From: a virus
DNA: 22,964 nt
Strand: one strand, 5' to 3'
IMG/VR virus record: IMGVR_UViG_3300028840_002779
The notes under the pieces are model-generated. The model was given only the letters and a program-made list of their open reading frames with translations. It did not search any database and was not told the DNA's origin. Numbering within the stretch: position 1 is the first letter of the stretch; every line of letters begins with the position of its first letter. A program made the translations under genes and the position numbers. Of this stretch, positions 2,299 to 22,964 are shown piece by piece.

Positions 2299-3534
2299 AT
2301 GAGTTTTTTAGTTAAGGCGAAAGACCTGCAAAAGTTGGTGAAGGAAAAGGGCCTCCCCTGGACCTTGCACCACTTGCAGGAGTCGTATGACAAGAAGGAA
2401 ATCACGCCGGCCGACTTCAGCCTACGCGACCTCGTGACGCACACCGTTGACAGCGGTGGCGAGATGATCGACGACTGGGCGCGGCAACGGCGCAAAGGGG
2501 GTCACATCGTGGAAGCCGCGCACGCGGTCGACACGTCCGCCATGTCGCACATTACCGGGCAGTTGTTTTTCAACGCAATCAAGGAGGGGATGGTTCTTGA
2601 TCAGATGATCGGCGATCAGTTGTGTTCGACGTTCGGGTCAAACATCCAGGGCACGGAATTGGTGCCGGGCATCGGTGGCGTCGAAGACGAATTCGATACC
2701 AACGTGGTTCAAGGCGAGGACTACCCGCTCCTGGGCCTCACCGAGGAATACGTGCAGATTCCGGCGGCGGAAAAGAAGGGCGGGATTCTCGCGATCACCC
2801 GGGAAGCGGTCATTGCCGATCGCACGGGCGTGTTGATCGAACGGGCCCGGGGCGTTGGTGAAGCCCTTGGCATCCGGCGCGAGAAGTCGATTATCGACGT
2901 GGTGATCGGCGCGGTGAACCCCTACGTGTACAAAGGTGAGGCCAGACTCACCTACGGCGACGGTGCCACGGCAGGGCAGGCGTTGGGGTTCCTCAATGAG
3001 GCAACAGCGGCGCTCGTGAATTACACGGACATCATGGAAGTGGCGGAACTGTTCTACGCCATGCGGAACCCAACCACGAACGAGCCACTCGGACACGACC
3101 CCGATACGGTAATCTGCTGTAAGAACCTCTCCTGGACGGCGGCGGCAGTGTTCCATGATACCGATCTTGATCTTGTCGACCGCGCGGCGGCGGCTGGTCA
3201 GATCGGTTCGCACGGCAAAAACCGAATCCCGAGTTCCTATCAGTGCAAAATCCTCTCCAACGAGTGGGTCACGCAAGCGATCCTCAATGCGAACGGTGGG
3301 GCCGGCGGGATCACTGCGGCGGACCGAGATGCGGCGAACGCGTATTGGTTCATCGGCAAACCGACCAAGGCGTTTTGCTGGAAGGAAATCTGGCCGTTGA
3401 CAGTTGAAGAGGCGCCCAACAACAGTGAGGCGCAGTTCAACCGAGACATTTGGATGCAATTCAAAGGCTCGTACAAAGGCGTTGCCGGCGTACGCGAGCC
3501 ACGTTTGATGATCCGCAGTGACGGCACTGCATAA
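2299..3534 (+). CDS. Major capsid protein (HK97-fold inferred from synteny and size), 411 aa
   Basis: ATG 2299 is preceded by AAGGAAAG. The track ORF start 2113 is an upstream extension overlapping the previous gene. It is the largest head-module ORF, in the position portal - protease/scaffold - X - capsid. The fold is not verified. Confidence 0.7.
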   Translation: MSFLVKAKDLQKLVKEKGLPWTLHHLQESYDKKEITPADFSLRDLVTHTVDSGGEMIDDWARQRRKGGHIVEAAHAVDTSAMSHITGQLFFNAIKEGMVLDQMIGDQLCSTFGSNIQGTELVPGIGGVEDEFDTNVVQGEDYPLLGLTEEYVQIPAAEKKGGILAITREAVIADRTGVLIERARGVGEALGIRREKSIIDVVIGAVNPYVYKGEARLTYGDGATAGQALGFLNEATAALVNYTDIMEVAELFYAMRNPTTNEPLGHDPDTVICCKNLSWTAAAVFHDTDLDLVDRAAAAGQIGSHGKNRIPSSYQCKILSNEWVTQAILNANGGAGGITAADRDAANAYWFIGKPTKAFCWKEIWPLTVEEAPNNSEAQFNRDIWMQFKGSYKGVAGVREPRLMIRSDGTA

Positions 3535-3557: not shown

Positions 3558-3824
3558 ATGGAGTGGGCTGTTATAATTCCGCTGGTCATCGAGGCAATCA
3601 TGGCTTGCCTCGAGAACCGCGACCGGACCGAGATTATTGAGGGCCTGGCGAATCCCGGGCCACGCGAGACACTCGCCTTGTGGCGCGTGCTTCGCTCACA
3701 GGGCTTCCGGGGCCGCAAGCTCTATGCCGCGCTGCGTGAGGGCTTGCAGGCGATGCAGTCCGCCACACGTTCCGAGTTGACCAGCCTTGTCGACGCAGCT
3801 GAGGAAGCGAGGGCCGCGCAATGA
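3558..3824 (+). CDS. Small protein with a hydrophobic N-terminal segment (88 aa)
   Basis: GGGAGGA RBS before ATG 3558. N-terminus MEWAVIIPLVIEAIMACL, then a basic helical region. The stop overlaps the next start (ATGA at 3821). Confidence 0.6.
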   Translation: MEWAVIIPLVIEAIMACLENRDRTEIIEGLANPGPRETLALWRVLRSQGFRGRKLYAALREGLQAMQSATRSELTSLVDAAEEARAAQ

Positions 3825-4477
3825 AACCTCTATTCTGCCTGATTTGCCTGGCACTGTGTTTGCCGGCATCGGCGGAGGTAACGATCGTCGGCCCCGATCG
3901 GTTGGCGGTGCGGGAGGCCGCACTGCTGAATGTCGAGGGGATCACGGCGCAACAGTTTGCATCGTGCACCCTGGCGGTGTTCCCCGCTGAGAATCAGCCC
4001 CAGATCGTGGCGCTGCAAACGCTCGACAACCGGCCCGTGCTGTTTGTCACCGGCGGCACGCCCGGGCGCTTCGCATTGATTCTTGACGTGAATGTTCCGA
4101 AGCAGTACGCCTTGGTCATTCACGAACTCGAAATCGGCTTTCCCCCGGACCCTCCGATTCCCCCGGTTCCGACTCCCACGCCGGAGCCGGGGGAGGGTCT
4201 AACGGTCGTGATCGTCGAGGAGTCGAGCCTGACGACACCGGCGCAGGAAGCGGTGCTGACCGGCCCGTGGCGGGCGTGGTGTCGAGAGAACGGCTATCGT
4301 GTGAGACGGATCGAAAAGGACAGCACGGCGGTGGACGCCCAGCCATTCATCAAAAACGCATCCGACCTGCCCTACGTCTTTTTCGTTTCCGACTCCGGTG
4401 ATCGGTATGAATCGTGCCCGCTGCCATCGGCGGCGGACATGCTCACCCGATGCAAGAAGTGGGGTGCCAAGAAATGA
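3821..4477 (+). CDS. Secreted two-domain protein with a Pro-rich linker (218 aa)
   Basis: Sec-type signal MKPLFCLICLALCLPASA/EV. A beta-rich domain of about 95 aa is followed by the linker PPDPPIPPVPTPTPEP and a C-terminal domain of about 90 aa. It is ATGA-coupled on both sides. Confidence 0.75.
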   Translation: MKPLFCLICLALCLPASAEVTIVGPDRLAVREAALLNVEGITAQQFASCTLAVFPAENQPQIVALQTLDNRPVLFVTGGTPGRFALILDVNVPKQYALVIHELEIGFPPDPPIPPVPTPTPEPGEGLTVVIVEESSLTTPAQEAVLTGPWRAWCRENGYRVRRIEKDSTAVDAQPFIKNASDLPYVFFVSDSGDRYESCPLPSAADMLTRCKKWGAKK

Positions 4478-5217
4478 GCGTTCGCTGGACAGGTTGCTTG
4501 CCGAGAGAATCCAAGCCCGGGGACGGCACGTTTCGCGTTGTGCCCGATGACTGGTTGATTCCGGAGAAGGATTGGAAGACGTACCACGCAAACAACCTGA
4601 TCCCTTACGTCTGGCACGTGATCAACCAGGGGCGGCAGAATTCCTGTTGTGCCTGCGCCGGGGCGGGGATCGTGATGTTGGCCCGGGAGCGACAAGGGCT
4701 CGATAGAGTCCTCTTGTCTCAAGCCGTGCCCTATCATTTCGGCAACGGTGGTCGCGACGGCGGGATGGCGATTGACACCTGCCTGCGCGAGCTGCTGAAG
4801 CATGGCACCTGCCCGGCAGACGTGGTCGATCCTTACGACTGGCGGCGGAGTCACTGGCCCAGCGAGTGGGAGGAAATCGGCGAACTCTACAAGCCATTTG
4901 AATGGATGGATTGTCCGACGTACGAGCACGCCGGCTCGATGCTCGCACACGGCCACCCGGTCATCTACGGCGCAATGGGGCACGCGGTCGTGCGAGTAGC
5001 AAACGGCATGTTTACGGATACACCCGATCTCAATTCCTGGCCGGATTGGCAAGAAAAAGGCCTCGGTCGCTGGGCGACCGAACGAGAATTCAGACGCGGG
5101 ATCGAAGGCGGATACGGGGCCTGGGCGCTGCGGTACGCTGTCGACCCGCCAAACGACGGAGACCTCTTGTGGAAGACGACGCACAAAAAGCCGGAGCCAC
5201 TTGGATCGGCACGTTGA
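4474..5217 (+). CDS. Papain-family (clan CA, C1-like) cysteine peptidase, 247 aa, with no signal peptide or prodomain
   Basis: Motifs in canonical order: NQGRQNSCCAC (Cys codon 4645-4647), GHAVV (His codon 4981-4983) and LNSWPDWQEKG (Asn codon 5032-5034). The intervening RDGG and HPVIYGA blocks also match. ATG 4474 overlaps the upstream stop (ATGA), so the track start 4414 is an extension. Confidence 0.8.
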   Translation: MSVRWTGCLPRESKPGDGTFRVVPDDWLIPEKDWKTYHANNLIPYVWHVINQGRQNSCCACAGAGIVMLARERQGLDRVLLSQAVPYHFGNGGRDGGMAIDTCLRELLKHGTCPADVVDPYDWRRSHWPSEWEEIGELYKPFEWMDCPTYEHAGSMLAHGHPVIYGAMGHAVVRVANGMFTDTPDLNSWPDWQEKGLGRWATEREFRRGIEGGYGAWALRYAVDPPNDGDLLWKTTHKKPEPLGSAR

Positions 5218-5345: not shown

Positions 5346-5554
5346 CCGTCCTAACCGACCTGCAAGACACGGCGGAACTGATTTCGGCGGAGCTGAAGGC
5401 CACCTACGCCTCTCCGCAACCAAGCTACACGGTAGACGGCCAATCGTTCTCACATACCGAATACCGGGCGCAGTTGATCCGGGACCTGAAAGAAATCCAA
5501 ATCCAAATCGTCAACCTGAGTGGCGGTGAGATTGCAACACAAGGGCTGGGCTGA
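5342..5554 (+). CDS. gpW-like head completion / head-tail joining protein (70 aa)
   Basis: The size and the pattern L.D..ELISAELKA......SY.VDG.S......Y.AQLIRDLKEI recall lambda gpW-type proteins. AAGGA RBS. The position downstream of the capsid gene fits. Confidence 0.5.
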   Translation: MTVLTDLQDTAELISAELKATYASPQPSYTVDGQSFSHTEYRAQLIRDLKEIQIQIVNLSGGEIATQGLG

Positions 5555-5736
5555 TGGAAACGATACCGGAAGTGATCGGATTTGGCGGGCTTTGCGTGTT
5601 CCTCGTCGGCGCGCAATTCTGGACGATCAAACGCCTATTCAGCCTGATGAAAGACCGCTTAGAACGGATCGAACGTAAAATCGACAATTTACCCTGTCAG
5701 AAAGAAGTGTGCCATGCAAACCATCCAACGGCTTAA
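5554..5736 (+). CDS. Small single-pass membrane protein (60 aa)
   Basis: One hydrophobic helix (VIGFGGLCVFLVGAQFWTI) followed by a charged helix (KDRLERIERKID). TGATG coupling to the previous gene. Confidence 0.5.
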   Translation: METIPEVIGFGGLCVFLVGAQFWTIKRLFSLMKDRLERIERKIDNLPCQKEVCHANHPTA

Positions 5737-6193: not shown

Positions 6194-6945
6194 GCGAGCA
6201 GCGATATCGTCCGAGCTACGGCCAAGGTTTCGCGCCACGCGACGGCGCGCCGTTACACCCGGGTCTGTGGCGAGGTCTTAAACTGTTCCTGGACGGGTCA
6301 CTTGGGCCGCATGACGTTTTCGCGCAACGGGTGTGGCGCAATCAATCGGCCCAGGGCAGCAGCCTCGACGGCACGCTCACCGGGGCAACGTGGATGCGCG
6401 GGGCGAACGGGCCGGGGGTGTTGTTCGATGCGGGCAATGAAATCGTGGAAACGCCCGCCCTGCCGTGGGACGTCTCGCAGGCAACGCCGTACACGGTCGT
6501 CTGCCGCGCGAGCGTGTTGGGAGCCTTCGCGACGGGCGTCGGCACCTTGCTCAACAACGGCGGGACCGCGCTCAACGCCCCGATGTGGCTCGCTATCGAG
6601 GCAGCGGGCCCCAACATCTGGCTGTGGAAAAAACATCGGGCCACGTTGCCGGCAGCGTGGAACGACGGAGCAATTCACCAATTCGCTGGCGTGCATCCCG
6701 CCAACGCCGCCCTGGGCGCTGGGCAGATGTATTTCGACGGGCGCGCCCTGGCCACCGACGCGGTAGGCGGCGGCGGCGACTGGTCGAGCGCCGACACCAC
6801 GCTTGGGATCGGATGCACGCAGGATTTGGGCCACGAATGGAATGGCGAGATAGAGATGGTGGGCGTTTGGAACCGCGTTCTCTCCGCGGATGAAATCGCC
6901 CTGCTGTGGCACGATATTTACGCTCTCACTCGATTGGATGATTGA
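6190..6945 (+). CDS. LamG / concanavalin-A-like lectin domain protein (251 aa)
   Basis: Typical Laminin_G_3 ending: MYFDGRALATD...TLGIGC....GHEWNGEIEMVGVWNRVLSADEIALLW. ATG 6190 overlaps the upstream stop. Track ORF 5923.. is an out-of-context extension. Confidence 0.8.
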   Translation: MSEQRYRPSYGQGFAPRDGAPLHPGLWRGLKLFLDGSLGPHDVFAQRVWRNQSAQGSSLDGTLTGATWMRGANGPGVLFDAGNEIVETPALPWDVSQATPYTVVCRASVLGAFATGVGTLLNNGGTALNAPMWLAIEAAGPNIWLWKKHRATLPAAWNDGAIHQFAGVHPANAALGAGQMYFDGRALATDAVGGGGDWSSADTTLGIGCTQDLGHEWNGEIEMVGVWNRVLSADEIALLWHDIYALTRLDD

Positions 6946-6947
6946 CG

Positions 6948-7568
6948 ATGGCCATTGACCTCACAACAGATCACACGATGTTTGACGGCCTGGAGAACGT
7001 CACGCTCGACGGCGGGGCCGTTGCCGATTGTCTGCAATCGTTCGACGCGGTTGTCGAGGCCGCGCCCTCTGAGGGTGGCTACGTTGCCCGTGAGTGCACT
7101 TGGCGACTCCCCTCTGTGCCGGTCATCGCGCCCATCGTCGGGTCGGTGATCGTCGATGCTGGCGGGGTGTCTTGGGTGGCGCAGACGGTCAAGCACCCGC
7201 GACTCGGAACCGGCTGGGTTGTCGGCTGTCGCGAGTTGGACATTGCTGCCGGGCTCACCGATCTGATTGCACTCTGGCCTGCGGTCGTGGCGCTGGACGA
7301 AGGCGGCGGGCGGATCGTTACTCACCCGGCGGCGGATTTGGTGTTTATCGACGTGCCGGCGAAGATTCAGGAGCAACCGAACACAGAGGGCATCGAGGCC
7401 GGCCGGCATCAATGGACACGGAGGTTTCACATTTTCTGTGAGGTGGAGTTGACCGGGCTCAAAATTGGCGACCTGATCAAAGACGACGCCGGCAATCAGT
7501 ACACGATCAAATCGTGGCGGAACAGGGAGCGAATCGACGAACTGTCGGTAATCGTGGCGGAGTATTGA
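6948..7568 (+). CDS. Head-tail adaptor / head closure-like protein (206 aa)
   Basis: Position after the gpW-like gene. The C-terminal pattern (RFHIFCEVELTGLKIGDLIKDDAGNQYTIKSWRNRERIDELSVIV) resembles head-tail adaptor beta-barrels. TTG 6942 is an alternative start. Confidence 0.45.
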   Translation: MAIDLTTDHTMFDGLENVTLDGGAVADCLQSFDAVVEAAPSEGGYVARECTWRLPSVPVIAPIVGSVIVDAGGVSWVAQTVKHPRLGTGWVVGCRELDIAAGLTDLIALWPAVVALDEGGGRIVTHPAADLVFIDVPAKIQEQPNTEGIEAGRHQWTRRFHIFCEVELTGLKIGDLIKDDAGNQYTIKSWRNRERIDELSVIVAEY

Positions 7569-14311: not shown

Positions 14312-14563
14312 GTGATCAGTATAAGTGCCACCGCATTGGAATTTACCACCCGCCTCAACTCTTGCGCCCCGCTGGTCCACCTGGTTTTCCGGGCCGGGGA
14401 GGGAGGCGCGCAGGTATTTACCCTCACGATTGACGCAGAGGACGCGATAATCGTTCACGAACAATTAGGCGCTGTCGTGGCTGAGTTGGAAGCACGCGAT
14501 CAGGCCGCCGAGGCTGACCCTGAAACCACGACCGATCCGAACCTTCAGAGGAGAACCGACTAA
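14312..14563 (+). CDS. Hypothetical acidic early protein (83 aa from GTG 14312; the track uses GTG 14300)
   Basis: GGAGGA at 14302-14307 sits inside the 14300 start but at RBS distance from GTG 14312. The same GGAGGAAATCG context precedes GTG 15061. Confidence 0.55.
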
Positions 14564-14988
14564 TGAACTCAAAAATCCTGGCAGAGCACGCGGCGTGGCT
14601 GCAGGACCCCGAGACCGGGAGCCGCGCCGATCTGCGCGATGCCGATCTTCGCCGCGCCGATCTGCGCGATGCCAACCTACGCCGCGCCGATCTGCGCGGT
14701 GCCCGTCTGATCTGTGCCGATCTTCGCCGCGCCGATCTGAGCGGTGCCGATCTTCGCCGCGCCGATCTGCGCGGTGCCCGTCTGATCTGTGCCGATCTAA
14801 CCGGTGCCAACCTGTGCGATGCCGATCTTAACGGTGCCGATCTTAACGGTGCCAACCTGAGCGGTGCCGATCTTCGCGGTGCCGATCTGAGCGAGGCCAA
14901 TCTGTGTGATTGCAATCTTAACGGTGCGCGGGTCATTTATCGCAAGCAAGCTGTTATCGTGCGTTTTGAGATTGAGCCCGCTAGCTAA
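14563..14988 (+). CDS. Pentapeptide-repeat protein (141 aa, 20 consecutive A(D/N)LxX repeats)
   Basis: The translation reads [30 protein letters not shown] ... [10 protein letters not shown] without interruption. TAATG coupling and an AGAGGAGA RBS. Confidence 0.9.
14681..14798 (+). repeat. 43-nt perfect direct repeat (14681-14723 and 14756-14798) inside the pentapeptide gene, period 75 nt
   Basis: GCCGCGCCGATCTGCGCGGTGCCCGTCTGATCTGTGCCGATCT occurs twice. Both copies encode [15 protein letters not shown]. Confidence 0.9.
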
Positions 14989-15060: not shown

Positions 15061-15894
15061 GTGAAACGTGAGTGTTATCGCCACCCAAAACTATACAATC
15101 TGGCCGCGCTGCTCGGTTGCAGCCGGCCAGAAGCTATAGGAATTCTGTCCCTTCTTTGGGACTACTGTGGCGAATTTGCGCCACGGGGCGACATTGGCAA
15201 GTTCCCCGATCCGACGATCGCTCGAGCGTGCGAGTGGTCCCCGGATCGGCCCACGGAATTCGTGCTCGCCCTAGTAGATGCGGGGTTTTTAGACACCCAC
15301 CCAGAGTACCGGCTGATAGTTCACGACTGGCCTTGCCATTGTGAGAAATACGTGCGGGCCCGGCTGAATCGAGCGGGGTTAGATTTCCTGGATTGCTACC
15401 CCCACCGAGAAGGGCTTTCGGTGTACGCCGTTTCAGCGTACCAACAGCGTACCGACGAAACGGTACGGCGTACCGCATATCCAATCCAATCCAATCCAAT
15501 CCAATCCAACGGATTGATCGATTCGAATCGAATCGATCGAATCGATCGACTGAGGGAAATTGACTGGGAGGAAGTACGAAGTTCCGCGCAGCGAATCCAA
15601 CGGAAACTCCGGCTGCAACTGACGGAGAAGAATCGAGGATTGATCTTGAAAGCCTGCGCGCTCGAATTGTACGGCCCCATGCCTGAGGCGTGGCTCTCCT
15701 CCGCCGTCGGGGCGGTTGACGCCAAGGTGGGGTGTCGATCGAAACCAGCCTACCTGACCACCTGCTTGAAACGGGGGGCTGAGGAGTTGGGCCAAAACTT
15801 CGCCGCGTTGATGGCGGCGGTAGAAGTGCCGGCCCAACTTCTTAAACCACCCAAACCCAAAAAGGAAGGCAAACTAAGTGAACCCAAACGATGA
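15061..15894 (+). CDS. Putative replication initiator / replisome-organiser protein (277 aa, GTG start)
   Basis: The N-terminal pattern (HPKLYNLAALLGCSRPEAIGILSLLWDYCGEF...GFLD....YRLIVHDWPCH) resembles phage replisome-organiser N-domains. The two domains are split by a repeat-encoded linker, like lambda O. The gene lies upstream of the recombination genes. Confidence 0.5.
   Translation: MKRECYRHPKLYNLAALLGCSRPEAIGILSLLWDYCGEFAPRGDIGKFPDPTIARACEWSPDRPTEFVLALVDAGFLDTHPEYRLIVHDWPCHCEKYVRARLNRAGLDFLDCYPHREGLSVYAVSAYQQRTDETVRRTAYPIQSNPIQSNGLIDSNRIDRIDRLREIDWEEVRSSAQRIQRKLRLQLTEKNRGLILKACALELYGPMPEAWLSSAVGAVDAKVGCRSKPAYLTTCLKRGAEELGQNFAALMAAVEVPAQLLKPPKPKKEGKLSEPKR
15479..15550. repeat. Iteron-like repeat block: (ATCCA)x6 (15479-15508), AATCC-AAC-GGATT palindrome, then TCGAATCGA/AATCGATCG repeats; candidate origin of replication
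   Basis: Read directly. GC is 43% over 15481-15540 against about 60% elsewhere. The block lies in the inter-domain linker of the putative initiator gene and encodes PIQSNPIQSNGLIDSNRIDRIDR. Confidence 0.55.
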
Positions 15895-16720
15895 ATACCA
15901 CGCAGACACGGCCCGCGTGTCGCACTCGACGCTTGAGGTCTACCGCAGATCGCCGGCCGAGTACCACGGGCGATTCGTGACCGGCACGATCCCCCGGCCG
16001 CCTTCGACGCCCGATCAGGTGTTCGGCTCGTTGGTGCACTGTCTGCTGCTTGAGCCGGAGGAGTTGGCGGAGCGATACGAAATCGCCGCCCTCGACCACC
16101 GGCGTGGCAACCAATGGAAAGAGGCCAAAGCGGAATCCGACAAGGCCGGCAAGGAACTGCTCTTGCCTTCGCAGTACAGAGCGGCCGCGCTCACAGCCGA
16201 CGCGGTGACGGCCCACCCCGAGGCGGCAAAACTACTGGGAGCCGGGGGCGTGGTAGAACAGCCGATCTACTGGCATGATGAAACCGGGCTCGCCTGCAAG
16301 TGCAAACCCGACTTGCTGATCAGACTGCCGGAGCACGTTATTTGCGTCGACCTCAAAACCGCAGTCGATCCGAGCCCGGGGGGATTCTCCGGTCTGATCG
16401 ACGGTGAGACTCGACGGGCGGGAGCGATTTGGCAGTGGGGCTACCATCGGCAGGCGGCGTGGTACCTCGATGGCATCGCTGCCGAACTCGGCGCGAAGAC
16501 GATCCCGGCAGAGTGGATCTTCATCGTCGTGGGCAAGGCCCCGCCGCACGATGTATACGTGTACAGATTGGACGCGGCCTACATCGAGATTGGCCGGGGG
16601 CAAAACACTCACGACATTTGCAATCTCGCCCGGTCGATCGAAACCGACGATTGGAGCGCACCGGGGCAGAATGAACTTCTAACCATCGAACCGCCCAAAT
16701 GGGCAAGGGAGCAAGCATGA
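15878..16720 (+). CDS. PD-(D/E)XK exonuclease, RecE / DUF3799-like (280 aa, GTG start)
   Basis: Motifs GSLVHCLLLEPEE, CKPDLLIR...VICVDLKT (D...D/ExK) and YHRQAAWY (QxxxY). AAGGAAGG RBS. It is adjacent to recT. Confidence 0.75.
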   Translation: MNPNDEYHADTARVSHSTLEVYRRSPAEYHGRFVTGTIPRPPSTPDQVFGSLVHCLLLEPEELAERYEIAALDHRRGNQWKEAKAESDKAGKELLLPSQYRAAALTADAVTAHPEAAKLLGAGGVVEQPIYWHDETGLACKCKPDLLIRLPEHVICVDLKTAVDPSPGGFSGLIDGETRRAGAIWQWGYHRQAAWYLDGIAAELGAKTIPAEWIFIVVGKAPPHDVYVYRLDAAYIEIGRGQNTHDICNLARSIETDDWSAPGQNELLTIEPPKWAREQA

Positions 16721-17685
16721 ACCAACAACAAACGCAGCCGGCCACAGCCGGACAGACCACCACCGACAACGGCCTGATCGACCAGACAATCCAGGCCACG
16801 CCGCGCGAAACGATCGTGGGGAGGGCGGCGGCTTTCCTGGGGACCGAGCCGAGCAAGGTTTTCAACCTGCTTCGCGGCGCGTGGCCGACAGGCAAGGGGG
16901 AGCCACCCCTGAGCAACGAGGAGCTAACGAGCGGGCTGGCGCTCGTTGCCCGTTACGAGCTAGACCCACTGGCACGCGAGGTTTACGTCACGCGCCACAA
17001 GGGGAAGCTCATGACGGTCATCGGCGTCGATGGTTGGGTGAGAGTGCTCGACCGCACGCCGCACTACGATGGATTCGACGTGGAATTCGCGTGGAAGGAT
17101 GAGGCGGAGACTGAGGTGAAGTGGATCGAAACCACGATCTACTCCAAGACCCGGGAGCATCCGACGAAGTATCGGGCGTTTGCTGCCGAGTACAGCAGGC
17201 TATCGGGATTCGTCGCCAAGTCGATCCCTATCCACATGCTGAGAATCTTCAGCCTCCGTCACGCCGTCCGGCTATTCACGCCGATTTCCGGGGCGACCAG
17301 CGAAGACGAAGCACGATGGATGATCAACAATCAGCCGGCGGGAACACCCGACAAGCCCTCGGTGGATGATTTACTGAATCAGCGCGACATCCCAACCGAA
17401 GCCGAAAAGGCGGCGGAAAAGGCGGCGGAACTGCCTAACGAAAGACCCGACGTGCCGTTCGGAGCCGGCGGGGGCCGGACGAAAGAAAAACCTCTGTACG
17501 ATCCGGCGGCAATGGACGCGGCGGCGGAGGAGTACTGCCAGGCGTTCGAGGGAGCGAAGGATTTGCTGGCGGTCGAAAAACTGTTCGCCCGGATGATGGA
17601 GGATGATTTCATCCAACAATCACCCGACGCGGCGGCTCGGTGCCACAAAGCCGCGCACATTGCAAGGGGGAGATTCGATGGCTGA
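16717..17685 (+). CDS. recT: RecT/Bet-family single-strand annealing protein (322 aa)
   Basis: ARYELDPLAREVYV....GKLMTVIGVDGWVRVLDRTPHYDGFDVEF matches the RecT core. ATG 16717 overlaps the nuclease stop (ATGA). Confidence 0.8.
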   Translation: MNQQQTQPATAGQTTTDNGLIDQTIQATPRETIVGRAAAFLGTEPSKVFNLLRGAWPTGKGEPPLSNEELTSGLALVARYELDPLAREVYVTRHKGKLMTVIGVDGWVRVLDRTPHYDGFDVEFAWKDEAETEVKWIETTIYSKTREHPTKYRAFAAEYSRLSGFVAKSIPIHMLRIFSLRHAVRLFTPISGATSEDEARWMINNQPAGTPDKPSVDDLLNQRDIPTEAEKAAEKAAELPNERPDVPFGAGGGRTKEKPLYDPAAMDAAAEEYCQAFEGAKDLLAVEKLFARMMEDDFIQQSPDAAARCHKAAHIARGRFDG

Positions 17686-17914
17686 TAGCGACGACAAACT
17701 AATTACCGATCGACTCGACCGACTCGACGAAAAAGCGGAGTTGCTGATTGAGGTGACAAAGCAGACGTTAAGCTGGCTGGTGTTGATACTGCCAACGCTC
17801 GGACTATTAGGAGAATTTCTAAATGCCCAAAAAGAAGCAGACGCCCGCGCAACAACGCATGGCACACGCCCGGTCAAAGATCAAGAAACCGGTGAAGCGA
17901 GCCGGACCGGTTGA
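17678..17914 (+). CDS. Possible small membrane protein (78 aa)
   Basis: AAGGGGGAG RBS before ATG 17678. One hydrophobic helix (LSWLVLILPTLGLLGEFL). It overlaps the next well-supported gene by 92 nt, which lowers confidence. Confidence 0.35.
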   Translation: MADSDDKLITDRLDRLDEKAELLIEVTKQTLSWLVLILPTLGLLGEFLNAQKEADARATTHGTRPVKDQETGEASRTG

Positions 17915-18329
17915 CGTTTTGAAACGGGTCAACCGGGCGTTTGAGCTGATCCCGTTTCACCGGCGCTACGTGGTGCGGGAAAAAATCATGAATCAATTCA
18001 AGTGTTGTGCGGACTCAGCCGAGACCGCGATTAGAAAAGCAAAAGAGCGGCTGGCGGTCATCGCGAACGAGTCGCGACAAGATCACCTGGCCCTCGCTCT
18101 GGAGCAAATCGAAGACACGATACGCGTAGCCGATCACTCCAACCGGCTTGCGGCGATCAAGCTGAAAATGGAATTGCTGGGGCTTGGAGCCCCAAAGCAG
18201 ACGGAGGTTGCCGTGGCGGTGACCTCTTACGATCCGGCGGCACTCGCCGCGATGCGAGATCCTCAGCTGCGGGAAAAGGCCCTGCAATTGGAGGAAGAGA
18301 TTTCAGAGTTTCACGAAAGGGAGGATTGA
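17823..18329 (+). CDS. Basic/helical protein (168 aa); weak candidate for a small terminase or DNA-binding protein
   Basis: AGGAGA RBS. Lys/Arg-rich N-terminus and an HTH-like stretch (CCADSAETAIRKAKERL). NRLAAIKLKMELLGLG recalls the C-terminal motif of some small terminases. Recall-level evidence only. Confidence 0.3.
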   Translation: MPKKKQTPAQQRMAHARSKIKKPVKRAGPVDVLKRVNRAFELIPFHRRYVVREKIMNQFKCCADSAETAIRKAKERLAVIANESRQDHLALALEQIEDTIRVADHSNRLAAIKLKMELLGLGAPKQTEVAVAVTSYDPAALAAMRDPQLREKALQLEEEISEFHERED

Positions 18330-18331
18330 TC

Positions 18332-18640
18332 ATGGGCTTTGAAAAAACTCGGCAGAACCAAAAACAGGAACCGAAGAAGAAACGCCCACCCAAGCAACAG
18401 CAAATCGAGGGCACGTTTGATCCGCCGAACCCGGCGGTGTTGCAGGCGGCGGAGTTGTACGCCGAAACCCTGCACGCGCGGCAGGAGTTGCAAGTCACAG
18501 AGGCGACCCAGCGCGCCGATTTGGTGGCGCAGATGCAGGAGCATTCCGTAGAGGAGTGTGCAATCGATGGCTACGTAGTCAAGTTGAACCATCGCGGCGA
18601 CACGATCAAGGTTGAGAAAATTAAGGACGCCGACGCATGA
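18332..18640 (+). CDS. Hypothetical protein (102 aa), Lys/Gln-rich N-terminus
   Basis: GGGAGGA RBS before ATG 18332. ATGA-coupled to rusA. Confidence 0.55.
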   Translation: MGFEKTRQNQKQEPKKKRPPKQQQIEGTFDPPNPAVLQAAELYAETLHARQELQVTEATQRADLVAQMQEHSVEECAIDGYVVKLNHRGDTIKVEKIKDADA

Positions 18641-19158
18641 TCAGTTTCACGGTCTACGGCAAGCCCCAATCGCGCGGGTCAAAAAACCCTCGCAATCTGA
18701 AATACAAGGATGGCCGGCTGGTCATGCGGCCCGGCACAACTTGGCCGGTGATCGTGACGGCGGACGATAACCCACAGTCGAAAGGGTGGATGGAAAAGGT
18801 TACAGCGGTGGCCCGGCTGGCGGTCGGTGATGACGCACTGATCGCCGGGCCGGTTTGCCTGGGGGTCCGATGCTTTTTTCGTCGCCCGAAGTGTCATTAC
18901 CGGACCGGGCGATACAGCGCCATGTTGAAGGCATCGGCCCCCAGGTTTCATACTTCAAAACCGGACGCGTCGAAACTGATTCGCCCGATTGAAGACGCGC
19001 TGACTGGCGTTGTGTACGTTGACGATAGCCAAATCGTCGAATACGCGCCGGGGCCAATCAAGCAGTGGACCGAGGCTGAGGAGCGCGCCGAGATCACAGT
19101 CGACGCGCTCGAAGAACTGCCACTATTAACAGCCGCAGACGCGGCGGGAGGGAAGTGA
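18637..19158 (+). CDS. rusA: RusA-family Holliday junction resolvase (173 aa)
   Basis: N-terminal FTVYGKPQSRGSK, and SKPDASKLIRPIEDALTGVVYVDDSQIV (the kPDxDNLxKxxxDALxGxxyxDDsQI acidic catalytic block). Confidence 0.8.
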   Translation: MISFTVYGKPQSRGSKNPRNLKYKDGRLVMRPGTTWPVIVTADDNPQSKGWMEKVTAVARLAVGDDALIAGPVCLGVRCFFRRPKCHYRTGRYSAMLKASAPRFHTSKPDASKLIRPIEDALTGVVYVDDSQIVEYAPGPIKQWTEAEERAEITVDALEELPLLTAADAAGGK

Positions 19159-19430
19159 TGCCAGATCGACTTGAAGAAATTCGCCAGTCGTTTCAGGACG
19201 ACGGCCGTGGAATTGACGACCTCGATGCGGAGTGGCTGCTGCAACATGCGCTGTGGTTGCGGGGCGAGATTCAACGGCAACCGCCACCGCCCGATTCGTA
19301 CAACAGCGGCTATCGTGGATGCATGGGCGTTGCGACCGCGCTGATAGTGATCGGCGGCGGTGGGCTCCTGCTGTACGTGGTGATGATGGCCGGGGCTACC
19401 GTGCTCGACGCATTGAAGAACATGCCGTGA
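19158..19430 (+). CDS. Small membrane protein (90 aa) immediately upstream of terL
   Basis: GGGAGGGA RBS. C-terminal hydrophobic stretch CMGVATALIVIGGGGLLLYVVMMAGATVL. The stop overlaps the terL GTG. Confidence 0.55.
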   Translation: MPDRLEEIRQSFQDDGRGIDDLDAEWLLQHALWLRGEIQRQPPPPDSYNSGYRGCMGVATALIVIGGGGLLLYVVMMAGATVLDALKNMP

Positions 19431-20812: not shown

Positions 20813-20943
20813 AACACGAAGCCGAAAAAATGAACGAGCCCCGGCGGCTCGATGCCCTGCGGACGCACAGTCACGATCGGTTTGATTGTCCGCTGAGTGA
20901 AATGGTGCCGTGGCCGAAACCGAAACCGGAGCCCGGCTTGTAG
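20809..20943 (+). CDS. Possible 44-aa ORF (MKHEAEKMNEPRRLDALRTHSHDRFDCPLSEMVPWPKPKPEPGL)
   Basis: ATGA-coupled to the terL stop and ends just before the terminator hairpin. It is below the track cut-off. Confidence 0.3.
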   Translation: MKHEAEKMNEPRRLDALRTHSHDRFDCPLSEMVPWPKPKPEPGL

Positions 20944-20955
20944 CCGGCGCTCCCA

Positions 20956-20991
20956 CCGGCGCCCTTGCGTGGGGCGGGGCGCCGGGTTTTT
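20956..20991 (+). terminator. Rho-independent terminator (CCGGCGCCC / GGGCGCCGG stem, T5 tail)
   Basis: The 9-bp perfect GC-rich arms are 20956-20964 and 20977-20985, with a 12-nt loop. GTTTTT follows at 20986-20991. Confidence 0.7.
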
Positions 20992-21016
20992 ACAGCTCTT
21001 TACAAGGAGAAGCGAG

Positions 21017-21820
21017 ATGAGCAGGATCAGCACACGACTGGAAACGTTGACGCCAGACAAGGCCCAACGATGGCTTGACAACCGGGCGCCAAATCGCCCG
21101 CTGAGTAAACTCTACGCCAGAGAGTTGGCCAATTCAATCCAGGTGGGCGAGTGGGAGCGTAACGGGGCAACAATTGTGTTCAACAGCGACGGGAAAATGG
21201 AGGACGGGCAGCATCGGTGTTTGGCTGTGGTTATGGCTGGAAAATCGATTGACGTGATCGTCGTGAGAGGAGTTGCGGTCGGGTCGTTTGATTCGATCGA
21301 CACAGGACGGGGAAGAACCGCCGCTCATCTTCTCGCCCGTGACGGTGAAAAACACTACGCAGTGCTAGCGTCTGCGCTTCGTTGGTTGAACCTGTACAAC
21401 CATGGGACATTTCAAAGCAACGGTTCTGGATGGGCTCTCAAGCTCACCCGGCATCAGCTCCGACAATTGTTAGACACACATCCCGGCATACGGGACTTTT
21501 GTGTGCTTCCGAAAAATGCCGGCGGGATTCGAGGAACCATCCCCTCCGGGATAATTGCGGCCTTTCACTATATCGGATCATCGATTGATGTAGATCTTGC
21601 CGAGACCTACTTTCACGGCCTAATGACCGGTGAGAATATCGGAAAAAGTTCTTGGAGTTGGCAAGTTCGCGAAAGGCTATTTGCAGCCTTTCGGTCGACT
21701 GCGCAGAGACTGCATACCTCGGCTAAGGCTGAGATCGTGGTGCGCGGCTGGAACGCGGCGAGAAGTGGCCGTAAGCCCGGGATTGTAAAAATACTCAATG
21801 AGTTCGTGGCGATGAAGTAG
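21017..21820 (+). CDS. ParB/Srx-superfamily (ParB-like nuclease domain, DGQHR motif) protein (267 aa)
   Basis: LTPDKAQRWLDNRAPNRPLSKLYARELANSIQVGEWERNGATIVFNSDGKMEDGQHRCLAVVMAGKSIDVIVVRGV is the classic phage ParB-like N-domain. DGQHR is at 21203-21217. AAGGAGA RBS before ATG 21017. GC is about 48-55% in three hand-counted lines. Confidence 0.8.
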   Translation: MSRISTRLETLTPDKAQRWLDNRAPNRPLSKLYARELANSIQVGEWERNGATIVFNSDGKMEDGQHRCLAVVMAGKSIDVIVVRGVAVGSFDSIDTGRGRTAAHLLARDGEKHYAVLASALRWLNLYNHGTFQSNGSGWALKLTRHQLRQLLDTHPGIRDFCVLPKNAGGIRGTIPSGIIAAFHYIGSSIDVDLAETYFHGLMTGENIGKSSWSWQVRERLFAAFRSTAQRLHTSAKAEIVVRGWNAARSGRKPGIVKILNEFVAMK

Positions 21821-21872: not shown

Positions 21873-22964
21873 ATGGCCACATTTCTTCAACGGCTTGGCA
21901 ATCAGCACAAGGCCGAAGAGGACTATCGGAAAGCCCTCCAGGCTCGCCACGCTTTGGAGGATGCCTGGGCTTCCGCCGATCCTTATCAGCACGTTGGCCC
22001 GCTTGCTGCCGGCCTGGGGGCAGCGGCAAACGACCTCTACGCCTACTCTGCGGGCTCGACGCACACCGCACGGCCGGGCAGCCGGCAACATGGCGACCTG
22101 CCCCCGTTCTATCGCACGGAGTCCCAGCAGACCGAGATTATCGACGCAGCCCGGATCGTCGAGGCGTACTGCCCCACCGCAGTCAATGTGCTTGACGTTC
22201 TTACGCAGTTCGCCATCTTTACCGGGTTCACCTATACGGTCACGGAGCGAAAGAAGCCCGGGGACCGGCCAGAGATACCGGCGGCGCCCGATCCGTTGGA
22301 CCCGGACGCAGCGCCCGTACAGCGCCCGCCGGAGAACCCGCTAGTGGCGGAGGTGCAGGCGGCGCTCGACAAGTGGCTTCTGGACGTGGACTGGCAGTCT
22401 TGGGAGTCTGAGATATTCCGCCGGACCCGGCGCGACGGGGAGGCTTTCCTTGAATTCGTCGACGATGAATTTTCGGACCTGGGCGTTCGGCTGAAATCGA
22501 TCGAGCCGGAGCAAGTGAAGGAGCCGACGGAGAAAACGGCCACCCACGCCAGTGATCAGCACAGCTGGAAGTACGGGATTCTCACCGAAAAAGACGACAC
22601 CGCGACACCAATCGCTTATTGGGTCACATCTCAATACGCTGACAAACGCGGGCGGCAGGGCGAAGAGGTCGACGCCGATGACGTGTTCCACCTCAAGACG
22701 GAGTGGGTCGACCGGCAGGCGAAGCGGGGCGTTTCGGATTTCTTCAGCGTGATCAACGATTTGCCCGGGGTGAAGAAACTCCTGCGCAACCTCCGGGAAG
22801 GGGCCACTGTACAGGCGGCCATTGCGTGGATCAGGGAGCATCCCGAGGGCTCGATGCCATCCGCACTGGGTTCCACGCCGATCACGAATCGCCACGGGGA
22901 CAGTACGGTTGCGGCACGATACGATGGTGCCACGATCCTTTCGGTGCCTCAGGGCATGACGTAC
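21873..22964 (+). CDS. Portal protein, 5' part (runs off the window end and continues in phase at 1..696; whole product 547 aa)
   Basis: My own translation. The frame opens after TAG 21831-21833, the first ATG is 21873, and there is no stop to base 22964. Product: MATFLQRLGNQHKAEEDYRK...RRDGEAFLEF...WKYGILTEKDD...AIAWIREHPEGSMPSALG. It lies between the terminase gene and the protease/scaffold and capsid genes. It is absent from the supplied ORF track because there is no stop in the window. Confidence 0.8.
   Translation, partial: MATFLQRLGNQHKAEEDYRKALQARHALEDAWASADPYQHVGPLAAGLGAAANDLYAYSAGSTHTARPGSRQHGDLPPFYRTESQQTEIIDAARIVEAYCPTAVNVLDVLTQFAIFTGFTYTVTERKKPGDRPEIPAAPDPLDPDAAPVQRPPENPLVAEVQAALDKWLLDVDWQSWESEIFRRTRRDGEAFLEFVDDEFSDLGVRLKSIEPEQVKEPTEKTATHASDQHSWKYGILTEKDDTATPIAYWVTSQYADKRGRQGEEVDADDVFHLKTEWVDRQAKRGVSDFFSVINDLPGVKKLLRNLREGATVQAAIAWIREHPEGSMPSALGSTPITNRHGDSTVAARYDGATILSVPQGMTY
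22821..22964. repeat. Terminal direct repeat, right copy (identical to 1..144)
   Basis: Same comparison. Positions 22821 and 1 are both first codon positions of the portal frame. Confidence 0.97.

Follow-up and report, generated by a model that had tools for sequence, protein, structure and literature searches.

What does a papain-like cysteine peptidase do in a phage genome in which no lysis enzyme of a known kind can be recognized? The question is raised by IMG/VR record IMGVR_UViG_3300028840_002779, a viral DNA of 22,964 nucleotides (referred to as the window, i.e. the whole stretch that was analysed). Directly after the capsid gene, within a late gene string on one strand, it carries three small genes whose reading frames overlap by ATGA at both junctions (3558-3824 / 3821-4477 / 4474-5217), as had been stated in the original prediction, which was made from the letters alone. 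There the third gene was taken for a C1 peptidase, the second for a secreted protein and the first for a small hydrophobic protein, and two options were left for their role: a lysis or envelope-attack module, or a virion-associated or secreted effector cassette. The features of this region, all on the + strand, are the following (AF2, AlphaFold2; aa, amino acids).

4474-5217, + strand: predicted catalytic subunit, a xylellain-type C1A cysteine peptidase of 247 aa (family profile, AF2 and Foldseek, conserved catalytic residues)
3821-4477, + strand: exported partner of 218 aa (alignments, AF2, Foldseek, synteny)
3821-3874, + strand: signal peptide of the partner, aa 1-18 (19-residue Kyte-Doolittle mean 2.19; ASA-E cleavage site)
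aa ~19-106 of the partner, + strand: beta-rich variable N-domain (AF2, low confidence)
4139-4192, + strand: Pro-rich linker of the partner, aa 107-124 (sequence)
4199-4474, + strand: thioredoxin-fold C-domain of the partner, aa ~127-218, without CxxC (AF2, Foldseek)
3558-3824, + strand: 88-aa protein with an amphipathic or hydrophobic N-terminal helix; its membership in the module is uncertain

As a single sequence the 247-aa peptidase had no match in Pfam (including PF00112, at E <= 1), PHROGs, NCBIfam, PADLOC or, by phmmer, the PDB. The motif reading thus needed a real test, and the C1 assignment depends on a family profile or a structure model. A search of 5.8 billion proteins retrieved 27 relatives without annotation, in whose alignment Q52, C58, H170 and N187-S-W were preserved. 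Q52 lies six residues N-terminal of C58 (codon 4645-4647), matching Q19 and C25 of papain; H170 is encoded at 4981-4983 and N187 at 5032-5034, with N187-S188-W189 occupying 5032-5040. When the family profile was compared with the PDB, the best match was 3OIS, xylellain of Xylella fastidiosa (E 2.3e-10, profile positions 12-211), followed by papain, cathepsins, ficins and falcipains, dozens of papain-family chains altogether. The Pfam Peptidase_C1 match that had been expected for the window protein itself was not obtained; the model was matched weakly by 8 of the 27 relatives (best 8.4e-5), and its cut-off of 20.7 bits was exceeded by two fused relatives, P0123 (39 bits) and P0061 (25.3 bits).

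The structure model agreed with the profile. AF2 predicted a two-lobed papain fold (predicted local distance difference test, pLDDT, 90; predicted template modelling score, pTM, 0.87), and Foldseek found 246 matches in the PDB at E <= 1e-3; the best 50 of the 246 were all C1 enzymes, the first being 3OIS (template modelling score, TM, 0.68). In BFVD the best matches were uncultured-phage proteins named 'Peptidase C1A' (TM up to 0.74). An exhaustive hidden Markov model (HMM) search of 1.84 billion representatives yielded 92 relatives at E <= 1e-30 and 1042 at E <= 1e-10. Among 173 relatives, counting non-gap cells, C58 was conserved in 168/168, H170 in 172/172, N187 in 158/172, Q52 in 156/161 and the W in 166/172. 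Judged from profile and model together, the 247-aa protein is a genuine C1A peptidase of the short prokaryotic xylellain type, presumably an active one, and the catalytic motifs were found as originally given. An identity as CHAP or NlpC/P60 enzyme was rejected: these families had no Pfam match and were absent from the best 50 matches of both Foldseek searches, PDB and BFVD. A role of the peptidase in defence or anti-defence was likewise discarded, PADLOC having given no match.

The family is rare. With a profile of the closer subset, 1 match was found in 185,579 species genomes, 2 in IMG/VR and 16 in JGI metagenomes; in GenBank phages the window peptidase gave one weak match, and the 218-aa partner and the peptidase of locus L013 gave none. 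Three peptidase homologues (P0080, P0128 and P0151) contain sizeable intein-like insertions (hallmarks C...; ...HN or GN, then C/S), placed exactly before the catalytic Cys, which serves as the +1 splice residue. In these proteins, as far as the hallmarks tell, the active site would form only after splicing. The position of the inteins suggests that the gene is indispensable to the phage.

The original prediction had given the peptidase neither a signal peptide nor a prodomain. The first point was borne out (maximum 19-residue Kyte-Doolittle mean 0.99). For the second, Pfam detected no I29-type prodomain; a conserved extension is present instead. It comprises aa ~5-45 (nt 4486-4608) with the motif G-C8-L-P-R11...G16-D17 in the 27-member alignment, and in the alignment of the 173 relatives C8 was found in 103/129 and R11 in 118/130. 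AF2 modelled the extension at pLDDT ~97, and in the comparison of the family profile with 3OIS residues ~8-31 aligned with the N-terminal segment of xylellain. In the description of 3OIS the N-terminal region of xylellain is said to block the active site, and nucleotide binding is reportedly described as well. By analogy the extension of the phage enzyme looks like the pro-region of xylellain, and it may occlude the cleft.

For the 218-aa partner the original reading of a Sec signal, a linker and two domains was upheld. Its N-terminus is a plausible Sec-type export signal. AF2 and Foldseek, which had been proposed for this protein, assigned a thioredoxin fold to the C-domain: pLDDT was above 93, the topology was beta-alpha-beta-alpha-beta-beta-alpha, and the best 50 PDB matches were all thioredoxins. 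In 21 partner sequences no CxxC was found outside the signal peptide and no cysteine was conserved; one member was cysteine-free. On the alignment and the model the C-domain is a redox-inactive thioredoxin fold, and a function as thiol-disulfide oxidoreductase was dismissed, CxxC being missing in all 21 sequences. By comparison with the redox-inactive b/b' domains of protein disulfide isomerase, it is more likely to be a binding module.

Some other identities of the partner were considered and abandoned. It is not a lipoprotein, since a lipobox is absent from every member. A spanin was rejected because the signal is cleavable and of AxA type, there is no lipobox, and the protein is built of a beta domain and a thioredoxin-fold domain, with no coiled coil. 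The NPTTG and RPW motifs of chagasin-type (I42) inhibitors were missing from all 21 sequences, the model of the N-domain being of low confidence. Export by the Tat pathway, with the peptidase hitch-hiking, was suggested by an RR start in some partners; the signal of the window protein (MKP...) and most others lack a twin arginine, and export was therefore judged to be of the Sec type.

The link between the two proteins was examined in loci of peptidase homologues drawn from Logan, ENA, JGI, IMG/VR and GTDB, all of whose open reading frames (ORFs) were searched with two HMMs, one for the peptidase and one for the thioredoxin-like domain of the partner. Wherever a locus extended ~700 nt or more 5' of the peptidase, as also in the distant loci L012-L014, a partner gene lay upstream on the same strand. 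The two genes usually overlapped or were adjacent; twice, one or two small ORFs stood between them. The reverse test gave the same picture: the distant partner homologues P0037, P0038 and P0040 each precede a protein of 240-302 aa, and two of these have precomputed Peptidase_C1 matches. A programmed -1 frameshift joining partner and peptidase was rejected, since the junction (GCC AAG AAA TGA) contains no slippery heptamer and gaps or intervening genes occur elsewhere; translational coupling is more likely. The surroundings of the pair vary. In the window, in L011 and in L014 the capsid gene precedes it; it stands just 5' of the packaging genes in L003 and L008, comes after RusA in L033, and is distant from the capsid genes in L001, L003, L008, L032 and L033.

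About 15 of the best 150 representatives of the family are single fused polypeptides. Their order is signal peptide or membrane anchor, then (beta domain plus Pro-rich linker), then the thioredoxin-like domain, then the peptidase with its G-C-L-P-R motif; P0107 consists of a signal peptide and the peptidase alone. Two fusions have a phage-like context, one after a helicase/primase block (L032) and one after RusA (L033). Because natural fusions stand behind export signals, they show, at the level of sequence, that partner and peptidase act together, and outside the cytoplasm. Exported forms make up ~16/173 and signal-less forms 144/173 of the family. Among endolysins, too, signal-less and exported forms both exist, the canonical type and the signal or signal-arrest-release (SAR) type, and the mixture seen here would parallel them. 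The original view of a three-gene cassette was accordingly narrowed: the peptidase-partner pair stood, on synteny in all loci with room for it and on the fusions, and the 88-aa protein, with homologues in L023 and L024 only, became an uncertain member.

One fused gene stands in other company. In L031 the thioredoxin-peptidase gene P0061 (2711-4210) adjoins a cellular-looking AP_endonuc_2 gene, and 3' of it, at 4296-4862, lies a secreted paralogue of the N-terminal beta domain of P0061. This copy may be a prophage remnant or a domesticated gene.

Whether the pair serves lysis depends in part on what else the genome encodes. Nt 1-144 of the window proved identical to nt 22821-22964, which makes the genome complete, with 22,820 bp in circular (or terminally redundant) form. 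No family of lysozymes, amidases, transglycosylases, CHAP/NlpC or M15/M23 peptidases, holins or spanins was found when all listed ORFs were searched against Pfam, most against PHROGs and ten against NCBIfam, which confirms the absence of a canonical lysin at the sensitivity of these libraries for known families. In ~120 kb of related phage loci, too, a canonical endolysin Pfam domain was not found.

C1 domains do occur in lysis proteins of other phages. A tblastn search with a typical xylellain-type domain gave matches in 4 of 50,697 GenBank phage records. One of them is ORF0095 of Alicyclobacillus phage MMB025 (L034 3920-6181; PV686781 47982-50243), a protein of 753 aa annotated as endolysin and predicted as such by its authors (bioRxiv 10.1101/2025.06.28.662109). 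Pfam recognized in it a Peptidase_C1 domain (aa 39-225, above the gathering score), an immunoglobulin-like domain, an Rv2525c glycoside-hydrolase-like domain and PG_binding_1, and the C1 domain was homologous to the window family (hhalign 97.2 %, E 3e-11). Some of the BFVD matches are phage proteins of C1 fold that bear the annotations 'Peptidoglycan binding-like' (484 aa) and 'N acetylmuramidase (fragment)'. The place of the fusion after RusA in L033 and of the pair before the packaging genes in L003 and L008 corresponds to the position of the lambdoid lysis cassette.

With moderate confidence we infer that 3821-4477 and 4474-5217 encode a two-part, envelope-directed lytic enzyme, the phage's equivalent of an endolysin. 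Lysis or envelope attack is favoured because the complete genome contains no other detectable lysin, homologous C1 domains occur in modular endolysins, fusions carry export signals, and some relatives have the pair in the lambdoid lysis position. The virion-associated option of the original prediction is disfavoured because the partner is exported. The proposed course of events is as follows. The peptidase, made in the cytoplasm, would be kept inactive by its conserved N-terminal strand, as in xylellain, and the exported partner would be pre-positioned in the periplasm. Late in infection a holin-type protein (candidates are 5554-5736 or 19155-19430, described below) would give the peptidase access to the periplasm. 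There it would dock on the thioredoxin-fold domain and, with the variable beta domain steering the complex to the wall, cleave peptidoglycan stems or cross-links, or structural envelope proteins, so that progeny is released.

Several observations weigh against this proposal. C1A enzymes are known for cleaving proteins internally, not for hydrolysing peptidoglycan. A novel muralytic fold might be hidden in the ~15 ORFs that lack annotation. No holin or spanin family matched any candidate, and none could be identified with confidence. In the window, L011 and L014 the pair lies inside the structural gene string. The role of MMB025 ORF0095 as endolysin is itself a prediction. Caudoviricetes sp. 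ctsTn925 (MW202426; L035 3998-4891) encodes, in its tail-gene region, a partner-less C1 peptidase without the G-C-L-P-R extension, and also an R21-like endolysin; a phage C1 peptidase therefore need not be an endolysin, and several roles are probable for phage C1 peptidases as a group. For the host, a member of the Planctomycetota is the probable choice, on the weak evidence of a single binned 5.2-kb Planctomycetota contig. The proposal gives no reason for exporting the partner before an enzyme that itself lacks a signal.

A bolder form of the proposal, which we place on the unlikely side, is that a phage lineage (probably on Planctomycetota) replaced its muralytic endolysin with a two-subunit papain-type protease, whose exported thioredoxin-fold 'receptor' would activate the self-inhibited enzyme once the membrane has been breached, the target possibly being envelope proteins and not peptidoglycan. 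Lysis would then be timed and targeted by a logic not described before. Planctomycetota have a thin-walled envelope, historically described as protein-rich.

Among the alternatives, the one that survives best, unlikely as we think it, is that the pair is a non-lytic or accessory envelope protease, acting in receptor destruction against debris trapping, in superinfection exclusion, or as a spanin substitute that loosens outer-membrane tethers, and that the true endolysin has an unrecognized fold among the many unannotated ORFs of the window. The export signals of the partner and the fusions, which show action outside the cytoplasm, fit this explanation, as do the normal preference of C1A enzymes for proteins, the coexistence of a C1 peptidase with a canonical endolysin in ctsTn925, and the Arg-rich secreted peptides that adjoin the module in relatives. 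However, a signal-less peptidase (144/173) cannot reach the envelope before the membrane is breached, which rules out early functions such as exclusion. Moreover, the homologous C1 domain of MMB025 is fused to glycoside-hydrolase-like and peptidoglycan-binding domains, and the complete genome yielded no alternative lysin.

A decidedly unlikely alternative is an enzyme-inhibitor system, in which the thioredoxin-fold protein would act in the periplasm as inhibitor or chaperone, silencing the enzyme until lysis or shielding the cell from the enzyme of its neighbours; this would be a regulatory variant of the lysis model. A signal-less hydrolase encoded beside its Sec-exported cognate is the architecture of amidase effector and periplasmic immunity pairs of type VI secretion systems. 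The strict coupling of the two genes, and the position of the thioredoxin-like domain N-terminal to the enzyme in fusions, where a prodomain would be, agree with it. The partner, however, bears no likeness to known C1 inhibitors (the chagasin motifs are absent, and there was no I29 or cystatin match), and a variable beta domain with a long Pro-rich spacer is more typical of targeting or spanning modules.

That the peptidase is a virion morphogenesis protease for processing capsid or scaffold can hardly be credited and was rejected over the export signals and the variable genomic position: the window, L011 and L014 do have the pair directly after the major capsid gene, and Pfam detected no prohead protease family, but the obligatory partner is exported and fusions have signal peptides whereas capsid assembly is cytoplasmic, the five loci named above have the pair remote from the capsid genes, and 693-1415 is a positional candidate for the protease/scaffold.

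If the pair is a holin-dependent lytic enzyme, a membrane protein should accompany it, and three ORFs may be considered.

5554-5736, + strand: 60-aa protein, the nearest holin-type candidate (mean 1.85 at aa 7-25; one N-terminal transmembrane segment; charged tail ending in C-x4-C)
19155-19430, + strand: 91-aa ORF between RusA and the large terminase, alternative holin candidate (strongest transmembrane segment of the genome, mean 2.26)
17678-17914, + strand: further transmembrane candidate (hydrophobicity)

The first had no sequence homologue in the fetched loci by jackhmmer and no PHROG holin match; comparably placed small proteins with a single transmembrane segment were seen in L011, L005 and L009. 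The second had no family match. It stands between RusA and terminase, the position of lysis genes in lambdoid phages; it also overlaps the longest reading of the terminase ORF, and hence is possibly not a gene.

The 88-aa protein had been described as having a hydrophobic N-terminus. The helix is hydrophobic or amphipathic as claimed; its 19-residue mean of 1.72 is borderline and acidic residues lie within it, so that on sequence grounds it makes no convincing membrane span. When the 43-, 60-, 70-, 78-, 88- and 91-aa proteins were run by jackhmmer against all fetched loci, homologues were found for the 88-aa and 70-aa proteins only. Those of the 88-aa protein, in L023 and L024, lie directly upstream of the partner there too. 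The 70-aa protein was rejected as a module member: its homologue L011 8101-8340 lies ~5 kb 3' of the L011 peptidase, beside the homologue of window 6942-7568, and we count the 70-aa protein among the genes further downstream, presumably structural ones.

Many relatives carry, in the slot 5' of the partner, a member of an unrelated family of 96-177 aa with hydrophobic segments (L003 4116-4649, L011 1384-1839, L005 12-488, L008 4602-4892, L009 4326-4649). Its members have an 'RRERR' stretch and a C-terminal amphipathic helix (W..II..I..L). The N-terminus of the 88-aa protein, MEWAVIIPLVIEAIMACL, is a helix similar to this C-terminal one, which suggests a permuted or analogous element.

In relatives, small proteins with a single transmembrane segment and secreted proteins with a Cys-x-x-G-x-C motif and many Arg residues recur beside the pair. 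The Cys-x-x-G-x-C loop with an Arg-rich sequence was found in L008 6828-7088, L032 10242-10511 and L033 3019-3300, and as Arg-rich C-terminal tails on the partners L001 8950-9708 and L009 5147-5998. One of these proteins has a lipobox (LLAC); no obvious copy was seen in the window. Such proteins may serve to disrupt the outer membrane.

In the rest of the genome, too, all genes lie on the + strand. The following were placed.

2299-3534, + strand: major capsid protein, immediately 5' of the module (Pfam Phage_capsid_4, E 8.8e-12)
693-1415, + strand: putative protease/scaffold with a coiled-coil tail, between portal and capsid
14563-14988, + strand: pentapeptide-repeat protein of 141 aa, at the start of the early/replication genes (Pfam E 5.8e-35)
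15878-19158, + strand: recombination block with a PD-(D/E)XK nuclease (DUF3799), RecT and RusA (library matches)
20897-21820, + strand: 307-aa protein with a ParB-like 'DGQHR' motif, between terminase and portal (PHROG 5931, E 1.7e-50)

The portal gene spans the circular junction and continues into 34-696, which accounts for the spurious ORF 22341-22895 on the minus strand, discarded as a gene. Library scans also named a Laminin_G_3 protein, a tail-fibre-like protein, a replication initiator and the large terminase, and detected no integrase or repressor family in the whole genome. PHROG 5931 we take to be a family without assigned function. The pentapeptide-repeat protein may be a DNA mimic or an anti-defence protein; PADLOC had no match for it. 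On the + strand between 2900 and 7000 neither a promoter-like nor a terminator-like site was seen, and the trio is probably co-transcribed with the late genes.

Comparison with known systems places the pair as follows. Xylellain (XF0156, 3OIS) resembles the window peptidase in size (~250-290 aa), in its Q/C/H/N site, in having neither I29 prodomain nor signal peptide, and in its alignable N-terminal extension; the identity is only ~19 %. To our knowledge no physiological role of xylellain has been described. The phage family differs from it in its own G-C-L-P-R motif and in the obligatory thioredoxin-fold partner gene, none being described for xylellain. Acquisition of xylellain-type C1A genes by tailed phages has been reported, and the roles of 'short' prokaryotic C1A peptidases are almost unknown (PMC10380794). 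MMB025 ORF0095 is a protein of an isolated phage with a homologous C1 domain and otherwise wall-directed domains; unlike the window pair it is one polypeptide, belongs to a phage of a Gram-positive-type host, and has no thioredoxin-fold domain, export signal or G-C-L-P-R extension.

Clan CA peptidases (CHAP, NlpC/P60) are standard endolysin domains (PMC10318531). CHAP/C51, NlpC/P60/C40, Amidase_5 and the pseudomurein endoisopeptidase C71 share with the window peptidase the papain-like Cys-His core and are used by phages on wall peptides; the window peptidase differs from CHAP and NlpC in its full two-lobed C1 fold, Gln oxyanion residue and N-S-W motif, and belongs to a different family. PlyC (PlyCA/PlyCB) has separate catalytic and binding subunits like the proposed pair, and the signal-peptide or SAR endolysins (Lys44, P1 Lyz, R21) resemble the C1 family in that cytoplasmic, holin-dependent and Sec-exported forms exist; neither is related to it in sequence or fold. 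We know of no described lysis system in which the non-catalytic subunit alone is exported. With the thioredoxin superfamily the C-domain of the partner has the fold in common, not the CxxC.

It was already known that tailed phages carry xylellain-type C1A genes (PMC10380794), and a C1 domain in a predicted endolysin had been noted once (bioRxiv 10.1101/2025.06.28.662109). The literature that we found describes neither the conserved peptidase/thioredoxin-fold module with its fused variants, nor a split layout with only the non-catalytic subunit exported, nor such a module as the sole candidate lysin of a complete phage genome.

Should the lysis reading be wrong, the strict pairing and the natural fusions would still define a new system of a protease plus a thioredoxin-fold protein. 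If it is right, the papain family proper (C1A) would join the catalytic repertoire of phage lysis enzymes, and the 'short' prokaryotic C1A peptidases would gain a first functional context. Where hosts have unusual envelopes, a lysin based on a protease could be developed from it. The two-gene, sometimes fused, module would allow lysis genes to be annotated in a group of environmental phages that now show none. An exported binding subunit combined with a cytoplasmic catalytic one would be a new form of endolysin control.

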